A stretch of 32,000 bases of DNA from Haloquadratum walsbyi C23 (GTDB lineage Archaea; Halobacteriota; Halobacteria; Halobacteriales; Haloferacaceae). Both the position numbers and the translations under genes were made by a program. A model generated the notes under the pieces. The model did no database searches, was not told the DNA's origin, and saw nothing but the letters and a program-made list of their open reading frames with translations. The DNA is taken from positions 990,001 to 1,022,000 of the forward strand of contig NC_017459.1 of assembly GCF_000237865.1 (NCBI RefSeq). Reading direction: 5' to 3'. This document shows positions 3,513 through 32,000 of the stretch, piece by piece (within the stretch, counting starts at the first letter, position 1; the number at the start of each line of letters is the position of its first letter).

Positions 3513-5066
3513 ATGACGCATACGCTCAGCGAGACATCTACGATTGTGATTGGCGGAGGATTCAGTGGGCTTTCGACAGCTTGCTATCTTGCAGATGCCG
3601 GTGTCGATGTCACGATTCTTGAGCGTCAGGATACGCTTGGTGGCGTTGCTGGACGCATTGAACGATCAGGATTTCAATTCGACACGGGTCCATCATGGTA
3701 TTTGATGCCGGACGTGTTCGAACGTTTCTTTAATGAACTTGGATACGACCCTACAGAATATTATTCGCTGACGCGGCTAGATCCTAATTATCGTGTCTTC
3801 TGGAAGGATGGTGACACAGCAATATTGCCGGCTGACCGAGAGGGTCAACGCGAGCTCTTTGAGCAATATGAATCCGGCGCAGGCGCAGCACTTGACACAT
3901 ATCTTGAGCAGGCTGCAGATGCGTATGAAATTGGAATGGAAGAATTCGTATATAAACATCGACCACGCTTTCGTGACTGGGTTGACCCCGGATTACTCCG
4001 AGCAGCACGTGGCATTACGCTTGTTGGATCAATGGATGATCATATAGCCTCGTACTTCGACTCAACAAAACTTCGGCAGTTACTTGAATATACATTGGTC
4101 TTTCTTGGTGGGTCGCCATACAATACTCCGGCGTTATACTCACTGATGAGCCATGTCGATTTTAATATGGGTGTATACTATCCAAGAGGTGGTATTGCAA
4201 GCGTCGTCGATAGTATCGAAACTATTGCTCACGAGTTGGGCGTAAATATTGAGACAAACACACCCGTTACTGGACTTAGCCGTGCCCACAGTGACACCGG
4301 TGTTCGTGTGCAAACCAGTGCAGACACTCATATCGCGGACCGTGTTGTTAGCACCGTCCCCGTTGCACATACTGACCGTGAACTACTTTCCGACGGGGTC
4401 TCTGATCACGACGGTTCATACTGGGAGTCGCGGACATACGCACCTGGAGCGTTTTTGTTGTACTTAGGCGTTGAGGGTGAGCTTGATTCGCTCGAGCATC
4501 ATACACTTATTCTGCCAACTGATTGGCAATCACATTTCGAATCGATATTTGATGATCCAACATGGCCGACGGATCCATCATATTATGTTAACGTTCCTTC
4601 ACAAACCGACTCAACAGTCGCTCCTGATGGTCATTCGACAGTTGTTATTCTCGTCCCAATCGCACCTGGACTTGATGATAGCGATGCTATTCGTGAACGG
4701 TACCGTGAGAAAGTACTTACTGACCTTGCTGTTCACACTGGCATCGACCTTCGAGATCGGATCGTCGTCGAGGAGACTGCCTGCACTAGTGAATTTGCGG
4801 CGATGGGATATCCGGATGGCACAGCATTAGGACTGGCACACACACTAACACAGACCGGTCCATTCCGACCCGCTCATCGGTCTGATGCCGTCCCTGGATT
4901 GTATCATGCAGGGTCATTCACCGATCCTGGAATCGGCATGCCGATGTGTCTCATTAACGGGAAACATGTTGCTAGCGCCGTTGTGCGTGACATTAAAAAT
5001 GATCGTGCAACAAGTAGGATATCATCAGTGTCATCGGTTGTATCGCAGGCATTTGGGTTTGATTGA
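3513..5066 (+). CDS. phytoene desaturase family (CrtI/CrtD-like) FAD-dependent oxidoreductase
   Basis: N-terminal dinucleotide-binding motif 'IVIGGGFSGLSTACYLADAGVDVTILE' followed by 'LGGVAG'. Length is CrtI-like. The ATG at 3513 places the Rossmann motif near the N-terminus; TTG at 3459 and ATG at 3465 are alternative starts. Confidence 0.85.
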   Translation: MTHTLSETSTIVIGGGFSGLSTACYLADAGVDVTILERQDTLGGVAGRIERSGFQFDTGPSWYLMPDVFERFFNELGYDPTEYYSLTRLDPNYRVFWKDGDTAILPADREGQRELFEQYESGAGAALDTYLEQAADAYEIGMEEFVYKHRPRFRDWVDPGLLRAARGITLVGSMDDHIASYFDSTKLRQLLEYTLVFLGGSPYNTPALYSLMSHVDFNMGVYYPRGGIASVVDSIETIAHELGVNIETNTPVTGLSRAHSDTGVRVQTSADTHIADRVVSTVPVAHTDRELLSDGVSDHDGSYWESRTYAPGAFLLYLGVEGELDSLEHHTLILPTDWQSHFESIFDDPTWPTDPSYYVNVPSQTDSTVAPDGHSTVVILVPIAPGLDDSDAIRERYREKVLTDLAVHTGIDLRDRIVVEETACTSEFAAMGYPDGTALGLAHTLTQTGPFRPAHRSDAVPGLYHAGSFTDPGIGMPMCLINGKHVASAVVRDIKNDRATSRISSVSSVVSQAFGFD

Positions 5067-16448: not shown

Positions 16449-17772
16449 TGTGTTGATACGTTCCTCGGCTCTGCACGTTTAAGTAGGGGCGTGATGTAGG
16501 CAGCATTGAAACCTGATGCTGCCGATTACGGATTTCCTCTCGTGCACCGACGTGCTGGATGAATTCGACTCGCTATCATATCATCAAACGACTCACGCCA
16601 AAACGTACGTGACAGGTCTTGCTGCGGGCCGCAGCAAGACTGTAACCGGAATTGCACGAGAGGTCCTTCCTGCCGGAAGTGACCGAGCACTCAACAAGTT
16701 CATCACCGAATACGATTGGGATGAGGATCAGCTCAACCACGAGCGGTTAGAGGAACTGCAAAAACACGGAGAGACACGCTGGTCACAAAACGGCTATATC
16801 GTTATTGACGATTCAGTCATCCAGCGAACCGGGAAGTCCCTTCCCGGTGCTGGAGAGTTCTACGATCACTCTGAGGGTGAGCCTGTTTGGGGACAGAACC
16901 TCGTCTACGCGTTCTATACCGATGATAAAACGTCCTATCCACTTGCTTTTCGCCAGTACGAGAAGGCCGACGACGAGGACGAGGAAGACGAACAGGAGAC
17001 AAAATACGACCTCGCACGAGAGATAATCACGGAATTAGAAGAAGAGGTAGGTGTGCCTGCGGGCACCTACCTCTTCGATGCATGGTTTGCTCATGACTCC
17101 GGTCTGATCGAACACGTCGAATCACACGGCAAGGACTGGATTGGACCACTACGGGGCAACCGACAGGTGACCTACGCGAACAAAGAGAGACGCGTCGATG
17201 CGCTCGAAGAGTGCATCGACAAGGAAGAGCGAGAAGTTGACGGTGAAACGTACAAAATTTGGACTAAGACAGTCCCTGTCTCGAAATTAGGTGAAGTTCG
17301 GCTGGTAATCACAGAGAAGGTTACCGATGAGGACAAAGAGAATCCAGTAAAGTATCTTGCGACGAGCAAGATTGACGCGCCTTCGGCACACATTATTCGG
17401 AGCTATTCGTACAGATGGCGAGTAGAGACATTCTTCGAGGACTCGAAAGAGGATCTTGGCTTAGGAGACTGCGAGGTTCGTGATTCTGACGGTGCCAGTC
17501 GTCACTGGCACCTTCAGATGCTGGCCTACAGCCTTCTTCGGCTTGGTCCGGAATCGAGCGCCTCGGAGCGACTTGTCTCGAAAGCCTCGTCGCTCCGATC
17601 ACAACTCGAACACGGTCTCAAGGAGACGATCTACAACATGTTTTCCTGGGTGCGCGATCAACCAGACCGCGATCTCGATGGACTGATGGAAGATATTGAC
17701 CACCTCTTTCTCCATTCTGAGGGCGGTTTATAAACGTGCAGAGTCGAGTACGTTCGTTATCGTCTCAACACA
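16449..17772 (+). mobile_element. insertion sequence with a single DDE transposase (IS4/IS701-superfamily-like haloarchaeal ISH)
   Basis: Imperfect terminal inverted repeats: 16458-16481 'ACGTTCCTCGGCTCTGCACGTTTA' versus the reverse complement of 17731-17753 'ACGTACTCGACTCTGCACGTTTA'. An outer 'TGTGTTGA' (16449-16456) pairs with 'TCAACACA' (17765-17772). The element is GC-richer than its flanks. I found no clean target-site duplication. Confidence 0.7.
16516..17733 (+). CDS. DDE transposase (IS4/IS701-like)
   Basis: Candidate catalytic residues lie in 'IVIDDSVIQR', 'YLFDAWFAHD' and 'YSYRWRVETFFEDSKEDLGL' (Y-x2-R-x3-E-x6-K signature). Confidence 0.85.
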   Translation: MLPITDFLSCTDVLDEFDSLSYHQTTHAKTYVTGLAAGRSKTVTGIAREVLPAGSDRALNKFITEYDWDEDQLNHERLEELQKHGETRWSQNGYIVIDDSVIQRTGKSLPGAGEFYDHSEGEPVWGQNLVYAFYTDDKTSYPLAFRQYEKADDEDEEDEQETKYDLAREIITELEEEVGVPAGTYLFDAWFAHDSGLIEHVESHGKDWIGPLRGNRQVTYANKERRVDALEECIDKEEREVDGETYKIWTKTVPVSKLGEVRLVITEKVTDEDKENPVKYLATSKIDAPSAHIIRSYSYRWRVETFFEDSKEDLGLGDCEVRDSDGASRHWHLQMLAYSLLRLGPESSASERLVSKASSLRSQLEHGLKETIYNMFSWVRDQPDRDLDGLMEDIDHLFLHSEGGL

Positions 17773-29159: not shown

Positions 29160-30425
29160 ATGAAACGTCGATCATACCTCCGCCAGAGTGTACTTCCTCT
29201 TATTTCGAGCGCTGGTATTGGTGCTGTATTCGCTGGATGCACCAGGACTGAGAGTGATGATTCGAGAATCACAACATCCGACAAGATGGCATCCACCACG
29301 ACATCTACATCTGCACAATCAGATACCCAAGTATCGCAGGTCCGAATTGAAACTGTCCTCACTGGACTTACACATCCGTGGGGACTGACACACCTGCCCG
29401 ACACTCAGAAATCACTACTTACTGAGCGAGTCGGTCGGTTGCTACTTGTTGATCGGTCAGCGGGCACATATGATCGTGTCAATGGAGTACCAGGCGTATT
29501 TACCCGTGGTCAAGGTGGACTGCTTGATGTTTGTATACACCCATCGTTCCCAGACCCATCATGGGTATATCTGACATATGCGGTTGCTCGCGATGATGGT
29601 GCAACGACAACTGCAGTCGGGCGTGGGCGACTGGACCGCGACGATCCTCGAATTACTGACTTCGAGGCACTCTATTATGCTCGTCCCTATGCCGACTCAG
29701 CAGGTCATTTTGGATCACGTGTCATCGTTGGTCCAGATAATAAGTTATATATAACTGTTGGTGACCGACAGTTCAAAGACTTCGGTCCAGATCATGTCGC
29801 TCAAGACCGAGGGAGCGATCTTGGAGCGACACTCCGATTGAATCTTAATGGAACAATCCCTGATTCAAATCCATTTATTGATGATTCATCCGCGCGAGAT
29901 GCAATATTTAGCTATGGTCATCGGAATGCACAAGGACTGGCTGTTCATCCTGACACAAATGCGATCTGGCAAACGGAATTCGGTGAGCGAGATGGTGACG
30001 AAATAAATATACTGACTGCTGGCGGTAATTACGGCTGGCCAATTGCAGATGAAAGTTGCCAGTACGGGAGTGATGAACCGATTGGTGTCTCACACGGTGA
30101 CCGAGAGGATGTAATCGCACCAGTGTATTCATGGCCATGTGGAAGTGGTGGATTTCCGCCAAGTGGTATGGCGTTTTATGATGCTGAAACAGCCAGCAAA
30201 TCTCGTGGTATTGTGGGGTGGCAGGGAGATCTTTTCGTTGGTGGATTAGCCTCACAGTCACTCGCGCGGTTCCGTATTGACAATCAACAGATTGAATTAA
30301 TTGATCATCTTCTCACGAATCGTGGATGGCGCATTCGTGCTGTTTCTGCCGCTCCGGATACCGGAGCAATATATGCAGTAATTGACTCAGATGATGCAGA
30401 ACTGATTCGGCTTGTGTCTGCTTGA
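29160..30425 (+). CDS. PQQ-dependent sugar (glucose/sorbosone) dehydrogenase-family beta-propeller, Tat lipoprotein
   Basis: 'MKRRSYLRQSVLPLISSAGIGAVFAGC' combines a twin-Arg motif with a lipobox. 'GHRNAQGLAVHP' and 'GGNYGWP' are family signatures. Confidence 0.85.
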   Translation: MKRRSYLRQSVLPLISSAGIGAVFAGCTRTESDDSRITTSDKMASTTTSTSAQSDTQVSQVRIETVLTGLTHPWGLTHLPDTQKSLLTERVGRLLLVDRSAGTYDRVNGVPGVFTRGQGGLLDVCIHPSFPDPSWVYLTYAVARDDGATTTAVGRGRLDRDDPRITDFEALYYARPYADSAGHFGSRVIVGPDNKLYITVGDRQFKDFGPDHVAQDRGSDLGATLRLNLNGTIPDSNPFIDDSSARDAIFSYGHRNAQGLAVHPDTNAIWQTEFGERDGDEINILTAGGNYGWPIADESCQYGSDEPIGVSHGDREDVIAPVYSWPCGSGGFPPSGMAFYDAETASKSRGIVGWQGDLFVGGLASQSLARFRIDNQQIELIDHLLTNRGWRIRAVSAAPDTGAIYAVIDSDDAELIRLVSA

Positions 30426-30439
30426 TATCCTCCTCCACG

Positions 30440-30481
30440 TTTAGTGATTCGACAAACTTCTGGGTGAACTGATTCACTAAA
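30440..30481 (+). terminator. inverted repeat just after the dehydrogenase stop (candidate terminator)
   Basis: 'tttagtgattc' (30440-30450) pairs with 'gattcactaaa' (30471-30481), 11 bp with one mismatch and a 20-nt loop. Confidence 0.3.
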
Positions 30482-30548
30482 TCGATGCGAGAGAACTATT
30501 CTGACTGATGTATGTCTAGTTAAGCACCCACTTCTTCTGTGAACTACT

Positions 30549-30945
30549 ACACGCGGAGGAATTCCACGGCACCACACGCACCGCTGAGTTGGGAGTTTCA
30601 GGTGCAGGTTCACAGGCTGCCGAACTCACACGCCGTGCGAACCAGTGTGCGGTCGAGGAACGGACAGCCTCTTTGAATTGGGAGTATCACAGCTTAAATC
30701 ACGGTACTCCTATCTTCACCCGAAAACGCGCTCCTGTGTTAGTTTCCCCACAGGAGCGGTGGTCGGTGGTCAGTGGTCAGTGGTCGGTTTCACCAGACTC
30801 AGAGTTACTCACGTCAACGCTCGCCCGGTGCTTATTCTTTGTTTCCCACATGGGGCACACTCTGCTTCCAGCGTGGGCGGACACTCATACTTGAACCGCC
30901 ACCTTTCGGGCGCTTGGCTACAGTGGGATCATAGTCAGTGCGCCG
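30549..30945 (+). ncRNA. unassigned candidate structured RNA (GC-rich, hairpin-dense island)
   Basis: G+C is 48 of 80 nt in 30551-30630. Stems: 30562-70/30632-41, 30593-98/30622-27, 30681-88/30703-10, 30730-38/30749-57 (perfect 9 bp), 30876-80/30896-900, and 30909-20/30932-44 (12 bp with one bulge). All four G.U pairs in these stems are valid only on the plus strand. Overlapping ORFs in three frames have non-protein-like composition. Confidence 0.3.
30757..30788. repeat. tandem heptamer (CRGTGGT) x4 plus a partial unit
   Basis: Direct read: cggtggt cggtggt cagtggt cagtggt cggt. Confidence 0.85.
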
Positions 30946-31158
30946 ACAGTTATATATACATCATGTTTCGACCGTTCGGGAACCCCCGGCTGCGACGGCG
31001 CGTGTCCACGGTCTGAGACTATGTGGTATTGTACCTGTATTAGCTATAATCCGCATGAATCGCTTCGGGTATTCGCCTCGACCGCCGATAAAATTTCAGC
31101 CAATGTATCTCTGTTGAAATCCTCAGAGAGTTACATGTTCATCCTGTAATTCCACGAG

Positions 31159-31980
31159 ATGAAGCCCCTCCCGAAGTCGCAAATTCTCCGTTTTACTGAG
31201 AAAGCGATCCGCCTGATCCGCCGAGTAGTCTCCCGGTACTTCTTGAAGTTCTCTAAACACCGCTATACACTTCCCCAACACGTTGTTCTGCTGTGTCTCA
31301 AAGTTCGGAAGAACACGATCTATCGTGGACCGCTTGACGAATTAATCGATATGCCACGCATCCGTCGTGTCCTCGTGTTAGCTGAACTTCCTACGCCATC
31401 AACGCCCTGTAAGACATTCTATCGACTTGATATGACCGTATGGCGTGTCTTATCGACTCTCTCCGTCACGCTACTTCAGACGAGCGGAGTTGTTGGGGTT
31501 GATACGTCAGGATTTGACCACAGTCACGCTTCGAAACACTACACGAAACAAGCCGAATTCACGATTTAGTAGCTCAAAGTAACGCTGCTGGTCGATGCGA
31601 AAGTGAACGCAATTCTCGACCTCCACGTGACGATGACTCGGAAACACGATAGCCAAATCGCTCCGTCGTTGGTTAAGGGCAACGCTGAGAGTATTGATGT
31701 TCTGCTCGGTAACAAAGGCCAGGACGACCAGAAAATCAGGCGACTTGCCCGGCAACACGAAGTTCGGTCACTGATCAAGCATCGTGAGTTCATATCGCTC
31801 CACAAGGCATGGAACACCTATTTAGACGCTGACGTTTAGGATTAACAGAGTCAATCACAGACGGTCAACTCTACGCTCAAGCGGAAATTTGATTCGTTCG
31901 CCCGCTCACGGCACTGGTGGAAATAGTTCCGTGAACTCACTATCGCTTGTCTCAGTCACAATATCGACCGATCACTCTGA
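31159..31980 (+). pseudogene. IS5-family (haloarchaeal ISH-type) DDE transposase, inactivated by in-frame stop codons
   Basis: A single reading frame carries 'GVDTSGFDHSHASKHY', 'LKVTLLVD..ILDLHVT..RKHDS', 'LIKHREF', 'TVNSTLKRKF' and 'RHWWK'. It is interrupted by stops at 31567, 31570, 31837, 31843 and 31924, and ends at the TGA at 31978-31980. I saw no frameshift. Confidence 0.8.
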
Positions 31981-32000
31981 ATGGTCAAGACAGATCCTCT

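Follow-up and report, generated by a model that had tools for sequence, protein, structure and literature searches.

Close to the right-hand end of a 32,000-nt stretch of the Haloquadratum walsbyi C23 genome (contig NC_017459.1, positions 990,001 to 1,022,000; the whole stretch is called the window below), a GC-rich, hairpin-dense island lies between a dehydrogenase gene and the remnant of an insertion sequence (IS). An earlier note on this DNA, made from the letters alone, placed the island at 30549-31010 and proposed a novel structured non-coding RNA (ncRNA), a guide or antisense RNA left behind by a lost IS, or a decayed foreign fragment. Which of these, if any, is the island? Our analysis indicates that it is very probably the inner part of a palindrome-associated transposable element (PATE) of the HqIRS56 type, a known kind of repeat and not a new RNA gene. 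In all probability, the minus strand of 30422-31045 represents one 624-bp copy of this element, a transposase-less derivative of the IS200/IS605 family (IS1341 group), which measures about 490 bp once its insertions are subtracted. The limits first drawn are too narrow, and the region read as a terminator hairpin of the dehydrogenase gene falls inside the element, where a right-end palindrome is split by a 108-bp repeat. Two nested mobile repeats of kinds known from haloarchaea would explain the GC excess and hairpin density as well as the odd open reading frames (ORFs) and a 7-mer tandem repeat.

A transposase-less element with defined ends

PATEs are defined as elements that lack inverted terminal repeats, have near-terminal palindromes, cause no target duplication and are too short to encode a transposase; 177-194 of them were counted per Haloquadratum genome (Dyall-Smith et al. 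2011, PLoS One 6:e20968, PMC3119063). In the window copy, palindromes lie near both ends, and neither terminus is an inverted repeat of the other. No target duplication was found, the flanks ...GTGTCTGC and ATAATCCGC... having no repeat in common. The element is too short for a transposase and is non-coding, as judged by tblastn, Pfam and frame-breaking indels between copies, and its ends are akin to those of IS605/IS1341-type transposons, the 3' end matching that of ISHwa21 (PMC3119063, Table S9). It is also multi-copy and mobile: a genome scan, described below, recovered 70 loci, a contig from the same organism holds a second copy, and orthologous loci lack the element.

Assignment to the HqIRS56 type follows from the published 5' and 3' end strings, which aligned with both the family consensus and the window copy. 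At the 5' end, the likeness comprises TTATA followed by ..GCAGGCGCAATACCACG..TTCA..CGTGGATACGCGCCGTCA, the published string being 'TTATA TGCTGAGCAGGCGCAATACCACGATCTTCAGGCCGTGGATACGCGCCGTCA'; at the 3' end, it comprises ..GGATTCCTCCGCGTGAAC.CGGAGGAGGATGTCAA, which is also the 3' end of ISHwa21 (Table S9). Copies of HqIRS56 measure 532-574 bp and those of the HqIRS56-70 family 466-688 bp (PMC3119063, Table S9), and the window element agrees with HqIRS56 in its size class, in the absence of inverted terminal repeats, target duplication and ORF, and in carrying a small mobile repeat (SMR) inserted in a palindrome. It differs from the 2011 account, in which PATEs were treated as DNA repeats, in its omega-RNA content and structured core.

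The right end was located with the terminus GGAGGAGGATATCAA, which the minus strand carries at 30422-30436 with one mismatch; the true right end thus lies about 110 bp to the left of the apparent end in the family alignment. The window terminus is also one mismatch away from the family terminus GGAGGAGGATGTCAA. Read along the minus strand, the right end runs ...GAATTCCTCCGCG / TG-TAGTAGTTCAC...GTCGAATCACTA-AA / CGTGGAGGAGGATATCAA / GCAGACACAAGCC. The hairpin at this end is CCTCCGCG-TGAA-CGCGGAGG, interrupted in the window copy in the middle of its tetraloop. The complete minus-strand order is transposon-adjacent motif (TAM), left end, middle module, omega-RNA scaffold (approximately 30811-30422), terminus GGATATCAA and would-be guide flank (Table 1).

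Table 1. Parts of the HqIRS56-type PATE copy in the window, with its immediate borders and insertions
Feature	Position	Strand	Details
Flank directly 3' of right end	30406..30421	-	Reads GCAGACACAAGCCGAA; last 16 nt of the glucose/sorbosone dehydrogenase ORF
Right-end terminus and outer palindrome arm	30422..30439	-	Reads CGTGGAGGAGGATATCAA
Small mobile repeat (SMR-like), 108 bp	30442..30549	.	Inside the tetraloop of the right-end hairpin
Omega-RNA (sot0042-like) scaffold body	30552..30811	-	Includes CGCGGAGG (30552-30559), inner arm of the right-end hairpin
14-nt insertion	30684..30697	.	Family alignment, 94% gaps at these columns
TnpB codon remnant EDRSTG	30702-30717	-	Reverse complement close to GAGGATAGGAGTACCG
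Variable hairpin	30729-30758		Inside the omega-RNA scaffold body
7-mer microsatellite (CGGTGGT) x4.6	30757..30788	.	Expansion in a variable scaffold loop; Tandem Repeats Finder (TRF)
TnpB codon remnant ~SNSES	30796-30808	-	Reverse complement GTAACTCTGAGTC
Middle module	30823..30949	-	Most conserved part of the family
6-nt insertion ATACTT	30887..30892	.	Loop of the GGCGG/CCGCC hairpin
Left end	30950..31045	-	Conserved start AGCTAATACAGGTACAATACCAC; family alignment
Left-end subterminal hairpin	31006-31026		Plus strand CCACGGTCTGAGACTATGTGG; imperfect in the window copy
TAM TTAT (plus strand ATAA)	31046..31049	-	TTAT(A) before nearly every family copy; Table S9 gives TTATA

The island is single-copy within the window, as shown by repeat comparison, and blastn against plasmids identified its relatives in unannotated DNA of two Natrarchaeobaculum sulfurireducens plasmids, with 79-82% identity to the middle module. 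MAFFT alignment showed that the whole island is colinear with a stretch of about 490 bp in Natrarchaeobaculum and likewise with an unannotated element of Natrinema. The window and Natrarchaeobaculum copies are separated by indels of 1, 2 and 6 nt, and the sequence is therefore non-coding. No match to the island was obtained by blastn of a phage collection. A 22-mer pattern from the best-conserved part (TGGGYGGACACTC N0-6 GAACCGCCA) was then scanned across 185,579 species genomes, giving 70 loci, all haloarchaeal and with differing flanks. The HqIRS56-type family reaches beyond Haloquadratum: its single, fixed architecture recurs in at least eight lineages of haloarchaea. Dozens of loci occur in one metagenome-assembled genome of the Haloferacaceae, about ten in Haloquadratum J07HQW1 and several in Natrinema gelatinilyticum; others were found in Salinarchaeum, Natronomonas, Halovenus and Haloarcula, and many lie at contig ends, a hallmark of repeats. 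A scan of viral contigs with CGGTACTCCTATCYTC gave 20 loci, although this pattern holds only 15.5 specified bases and many chance matches are expected by our estimate.

Forty copies with full flanks aligned with the window copy across a common length of about 490 bp, and conservation began and ended abruptly. At 93% identity, 34 copies were non-redundant; their lengths were 440-546 nt, with all but one at 488-546 nt. The window copy is 50-71% identical to the other retrieved members. On the tnpB-sense strand, every copy starts with TTATAGGTGGAACAGGCGCA..CCCACG.CGTTCACGGCGTGGATACGCGCCGTCACAG and ends with ..GGATTCCTCCGCGTGAACGCGGAGGAGGATGTCAA, and the sequences outside are unrelated among copies. 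The fixed oligonucleotides TTAT(A) and GTCAA border nearly all of them. None of the full-flank copies contains an internal tnpB gene. The architecture of about 490 bp and the boundaries shared by diverged copies argue that the family spreads as a unit. The earlier suggestion that the island is debris of a lost IS does not fit these data: the element is complete, discrete and non-autonomous, has its own ends and recurs at about 70 other loci.

Several retrieved copies are informative in themselves. The copy on the same-organism contig (L099:881-1439) is diverged, with approximately 72% identity to the consensus. In two different genomes, a PATE copy (L038:189-691 and L076:6296-6636) lies 13-33 nt upstream of a tnpB start codon, and in L038 another left-end-like hairpin follows some 80 nt past the PATE; apparently, PATEs have nested repeatedly between the left end of a tnpB element and its gene. 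On the Natrarchaeobaculum plasmid pAArc-Mg-01 (L002, approximately 3678-3989), the PATE carries a nested insertion of about 310 bp after GGAGTTAC. The copy of strain AArc1 (L001), otherwise 94-99% identical, lacks this insertion.

The GC claim of the earlier note was confirmed, with values of 0.53-0.565 over 30500-31000 compared with a whole-window mean of 0.47. We attribute the GC richness and the hairpin density to a structured element that is common to much GC-richer haloarchaea. The hairpin density itself was upheld in part: local inverted repeats do occur, one of them with a perfect 10-bp stem (30729-30738/30749-30758), but folding of the single sequence goes only modestly beyond shuffled controls. 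ORFs are indeed open in several frames and are not protein-like, since a Pfam search of all six frames of the family consensus was empty.

Homology to the omega-RNA of TnpB elements

The relationship to TnpB emerged from the Natrarchaeobaculum copy L001. Its 5' part of about 160 nt matches the last ~100 nt of annotated TnpB genes together with ~55 nt downstream. These genes, from Halarchaeum, Haloplanus, Natronorubrum and others, are annotated as 'RNA-guided endonuclease TnpB family protein', and the matches are antisense to the plus strand of the window. DNA identity between L001 and the 3' end plus right end of the annotated tnpB elements was 72-74%. The window is colinear with L001 as well as with the tnpB-linked loci L003 and L004. 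Two short coding traces lie within this part: read in reverse complement, the invariant CGGTACTCCTATCYTC gives the codons for E-D-R-S-T-G and GACTCGGAGTTAC those for (S)NSES, both of which belong to the TnpB C-terminus ...NQSNSESSASLDEDRSTGWLAQP.

Comparison with Rfam pointed in the same direction. The intact relative L060 matched model positions 1-174 of RF02656 on the tnpB-sense strand with 45.8 bits (E 1e-10) and also matched HgcC (E 6e-5), and the tnpB-linked L003 matched RF02656 with 77.8 bits (E 3e-20). RF02656 represents sot0042, a haloarchaeal sense-overlapping transcript of IS1341 tnpB that is now equated with omega-RNA; its model starts at AAGUAACUCCGAGUC and ends in the hairpin known as 'RE-like tetraloop' (Gomes-Filho et al. 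2015). The PATE resembles sot0042 (RF02656) and HgcC (RF00062) in the start AAGUAACUCCGAGUC, the internal helices, the tetraloop hairpin followed by GGAUGUCAA and the overlap with TnpB C-terminal codons, and differs from sot0042 by the absence of a tnpB in cis, by scores below the gathering score and by an extra conserved module of about 130 nt upstream. The scaffold has the 3' position of an omega-RNA, overlaps tnpB C-terminal codons and ends at the right-end boundary; it has no cognate tnpB in cis. Judged by this homology, the island harbours an omega-RNA (sotRNA) scaffold of the kind found in IS1341-type TnpB elements, which would be transcribed and would guide TnpB, and the functional strand appears to be the minus strand. 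The earlier idea of a transposon-associated guide RNA was therefore right about the omega-RNA scaffold and wrong about the strand, the limits and the neighbouring IS, which is unrelated.

Could the sequence instead be the debris of a frameshifted tnpB pseudogene in a once-autonomous IS1341 element? The two codon remnants and the clear decay of the window copy would fit such an origin, and some PATEs do derive from IS605-type transposons by deletion of the core (PMC3119063). However, tblastn with two haloarchaeal TnpB proteins found no match in the island or the whole window, the six-frame Pfam search was equally empty, and the check for a frameshifted protein gene yielded only the two short remnants. 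Moreover, the 34 diverged copies in at least eight lineages have the same architecture of about 490 bp, and the middle module is absent from the tnpB elements examined. We therefore consider pseudogene debris very unlikely.

The reading of the island as a gene-less omega-RNA carrier agrees with published work. PATEs 'often encode omega-RNAs' on which TnpB acts in trans (Meers et al. preprint), and PATE-derived RNA is expressed in Halobacterium (Gomes-Filho et al. 2015, PMC4615843); the Haloquadratum transcriptome paper does not mention PATEs. Elements of Geobacillus stearothermophilus (Meers et al. 2023) are similar in that protein-less IS200/IS605 ends are served by TnpA and TnpB in trans. 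They differ in being bacterial and unrelated in sequence, and activity was shown there for the parent IS elements.

From the biology of IS200/IS605 and TnpB and from Meers et al., the following steps can be proposed. TnpA acting in trans would recognise the end hairpins, excise the tnpB-sense single strand and insert it 3' of TTAT. A minus-strand transcript would be processed to an omega-RNA whose guide is the flank GCAGACACAAGCCGAA after GTCAA, that is, the end of the dehydrogenase gene. TnpB, also in trans, would cut alleles without the PATE (TTAT + GCAGACACAAGCC...), and recombination after the cut would restore the element, favouring its retention. Gene-less omega-RNA carriers of this sort bear on TnpB-guided homing in trans, and they constitute a recurring false positive in scans for novel ncRNA.

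The middle module and the strand of the structure

Between the left end and the omega-RNA start, in the usual place of tnpB, lies the middle module of about 130 nt (minus strand, 30949-30823). It begins with a 14-bp hairpin (30949-30935 with 30926-30912), after which GCCCG/CGGGC (30911-30907 with 30827-30823) closes a junction. Enclosed in it are a GGCGG...CCGCC hairpin, a hairpin whose loop is GAAA in the consensus (GAAG in the window copy) and a CCC...GGG hairpin. Across the family, 92.7% of the cells are paired in this structure, compared with 35-43% in slid controls. Changes on both sides of a pair were counted in 44 cells, against 12.3 +/- 2.9 in shuffles, and none of 500 shuffles reached the observed covariation. 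Helix 3 served as the search bait, and its invariance is uninformative owing to this ascertainment.

The module was not matched by Rfam in the window copy or in the intact L060. It was not found in the tnpB-carrying elements examined, and in the plasmid collection it occurred only inside the PATE family. Loci L038 and L076, considered as tnpB elements that contain the module, were rejected, as they are PATE copies nested upstream of the tnpB start. The related PATE copies L005 and L006 have a different sequence at this position. Most likely, the module is a structured leader needed to express, process or stabilise the omega-RNA, or a feature for handling the element as single-stranded DNA. An undescribed functional RNA domain that makes or stabilises the omega-RNA, loads it onto a TnpB acting in trans or competes for that TnpB is possible but unlikely; it would represent an RNA-level adaptation of a non-autonomous transposon and not leftover sequence. 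The residual interest of the locus lies in this covarying module in the place of tnpB and in the spread of the family.

As an alternative, the module may be cargo and not a leader, a functional RNA or ribozyme in its own right that could, for instance, be self-processing or intron-like as in IStrons. In favour of this, no other part of the family is as well conserved, the module folds into a compact junction of several helices that has a GNRA loop and shows compensatory changes, and it is positioned exactly 5' of the omega-RNA start as defined by RF02656. Nevertheless, neither the window copy nor L060 matched any group I or group II intron or ribozyme of Rfam at E<=10, the occurrences in the plasmid collection are confined to the PATE family, and the conservation of helix 3 is partly an effect of ascertainment, all of which makes such a cargo highly improbable. 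A group I intron or IStron was rejected, no intron family having been matched by either copy at this threshold.

As for the strand, it was decided by homology to tnpB and RF02656, and the structural data were compared with that assignment. The evidence for RNA from the single sequence is weak, with z = -2.1 for the plus and z = -0.78 for the minus strand against dinucleotide shuffles. RNAalifold analysis of the 34-copy alignment gave 45 pairs, 22 of which showed compensatory changes. On the minus strand, G.U versus A.C cells in the family numbered 85 versus 25 in the middle module, 56 versus 15 in the left end and 130 versus 77 in the omega part; the structure was optimised on that strand, and the counts are biased towards it. 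The window copy alone, placed on the family helices, gave 9 G.U and 11 A.C and thus no strand preference. These numbers contradict the earlier claim of G.U pairs that function on the plus strand alone. Several of those pairs are likely to reflect transition damage, because the decayed arm CTTCTTCTG, seemingly paired with CGGAGGAA, lies in the inserted repeat.

A novel structured ncRNA gene on the plus strand, unrelated to transposons and listed among the candidates of the earlier note, is barely credible: the fold z of that strand, the lack of an Rfam match and an alifold energy of -213 kcal/mol, near the -221 kcal/mol of the minus strand, speak for it, but the sequence occurs in many copies that have a TAM and transposon ends, its 3' half shows homology to the TnpB omega-RNA on the opposite strand, and only the minus strand gives a proper reading of the GAAA (GNRA) loop and of the commonest G.U pairs. 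RNase P, SRP and other curated RNAs were rejected, since the Rfam scan of the whole window was empty at the gathering score; the RNase P-like reading proposed before thus found no support. At E<=10, only chance-level hits to sR12 and SMAD5-AS1 (E 2.3 and 7.2) were obtained over 30300-31300, in agreement with the earlier statement that no RNA family could be assigned, and a scan for tRNA and tmRNA detected none.

Several observations weigh against the identification as an HqIRS56-type PATE with an omega-RNA scaffold. The scores of L060 and L003 lie below the RF02656 gathering score of 88, and formal membership is not reached; even so, their E-values clearly point to homology with this family. 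The window copy itself has no Rfam match beyond chance even at E<=10, which we ascribe to its insertions of 108, 32 and 14 nt. The window and the contigs fetched for the same organism contain neither tnpB nor tnpA, and the partners in trans are assumed. The alifold energy and the G.U/A.C counts favour the minus strand only moderately, each structure having been optimised for its own strand. In addition, the empty site GC/ATAA is a reconstruction, the orthologs of about 80% identity being too diverged downstream to show the joint. Finally, the origin and the role of the middle module are not accounted for by the PATE identity.

Damage, insertion site and neighbours of the window copy

The 108-bp repeat inside the PATE has imperfect terminal inverted repeats, TAGTGATTCGAC / GTGAACTACTA, which can also be read as TAGTGATTCGAC/TAGTAGTTCAC, and sits between TT and CA of the tetraloop (plus strand). 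Small mobile repeats of ~110 bp are known to insert into the near-terminal palindromes of PATEs, HqIRS56 having been struck in 9/19 and 12/23 (PMC3119063). The insert has the features of such a repeat: a length of ~110 bp, terminal inverted repeats, no target duplication, a site in a near-terminal palindrome and several copies. It resembles the published description of HqIRS42/43/55 in its 108 bp, imperfect inverted repeats, absence of target duplication, position in a palindrome loop and second copy in another loop.

A metagenome scan with a 23-mer from the insert identified four contigs. Two of these, L100 and L102, are 98%-identical alleles of the window locus, in which the arms and the terminus have the exact consensus TTGACATCCTCCTCCGCG ... 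CGCGGAGG. The third, L099, matches the window from 30442 onward with 97% identity to the end of the fetched stretch. In L101, the 108-mer recurs at 632-739 with 99% identity, placed in the loop between the arms of an unrelated, perfect palindrome (GACCTCTCCCAGC / GCTGGGAGAGGTC), suggesting that the repeat may target hairpin loops. An allele of the window locus without the SMR would be expected to read CCTCCTCCGCGTTCACGCGGAGGAATTCC.

TRF confirmed the 7-mer tandem repeat seen before (CGGTGGT, period 7, 4.6 copies, 92% matches). The array is absent from the Natrarchaeobaculum copies in the MAFFT alignment and from 86-92% of the family copies, and it is two units shorter in L100/L102. Other copies of the Haloquadratum lineage carry different microsatellites at other positions, namely (GTCCGT)n in L042, L046 and L047 and (CAACT)n in L046. 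From this copy-number polymorphism and the different microsatellites elsewhere, we conclude that the array is a neutral microsatellite. The 14-nt insertion is common to L100/L102 and absent from 94% of the family copies, and the ATACTT insertion is common to only a few copies of the Haloquadratum lineage. A U-rich/TATATA end of the island, as described earlier, is present in the window copy and its 98%-identical alleles, but the family consensus reads CTTACAGAGACGC at this place. Overall, the window copy is probably crippled, because its terminal hairpin, which would serve TnpA as well as TnpB, contains the 108-nt insert, its terminus has two transitions, its left-end hairpin is imperfect and no partner genes lie nearby.

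The gene at the right end of the element encodes a glucose/sorbosone dehydrogenase (Pfam GSDH match); look-ups of the exact protein, made with two alternative start codons, gave no record. The end of the element supplies the T that finishes the last dehydrogenase codon as well as the TGA stop. When the element was removed in silico, the sequence became ...TCTGC/ATAATCC, that is, GCA TAA, and the protein end was unchanged; the TAM TTAT would thus have coincided in part with the stop codon that the dehydrogenase gene originally had. The joint of an empty allele is predicted as GGCTTGTGTCTGCATAATCCGCATGAATC. The orthologous dehydrogenases of other Haloquadratum genomes, 79-80% identical as proteins, terminate at the same codon position, and a convergent RdfA-domain gene follows 26-75 nt downstream with no 600-bp element between. 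In Haloquadratum J07HQW2 (L107; KE356561.1, approximately 3797-3852), the orthologous dehydrogenase is immediately followed by a ~52-bp 'terminal-only' PATE, TTATAGAATACAAGGAGAATACGCGCGTTTTCAGGCGCGGGAGGATGTCAA. Judging from these sequences, the TTAT that closes this gene appears to be a hot spot for repeated insertion.

Beyond the element's opposite end, 31109-32000 of the window contains an IS5-family remnant, the first ~50 bp of which are 90-98% identical to the ends of IS5 elements on many haloarchaeal plasmids. Pfam gave no match for its two ORFs, which are broken by stop codons, and the IS5 assignment was made through the DNA matches. This remnant is unrelated to the PATE, and the link that the earlier note drew between the island and its IS neighbour does not hold. 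Elsewhere in the window, 16464-17753 has ~84% DNA identity to IS701-family transposase genes on plasmids of Halosimplex, Halococcus and Halocatena and coincides with the ORF 16516-17733 (405 aa). The only other 300-nt bin with a GC content >0.54, at 1201-1500, has no PATE similarity; it lies within the ORF 993-1718 and is probably what the earlier note had counted as the first island.

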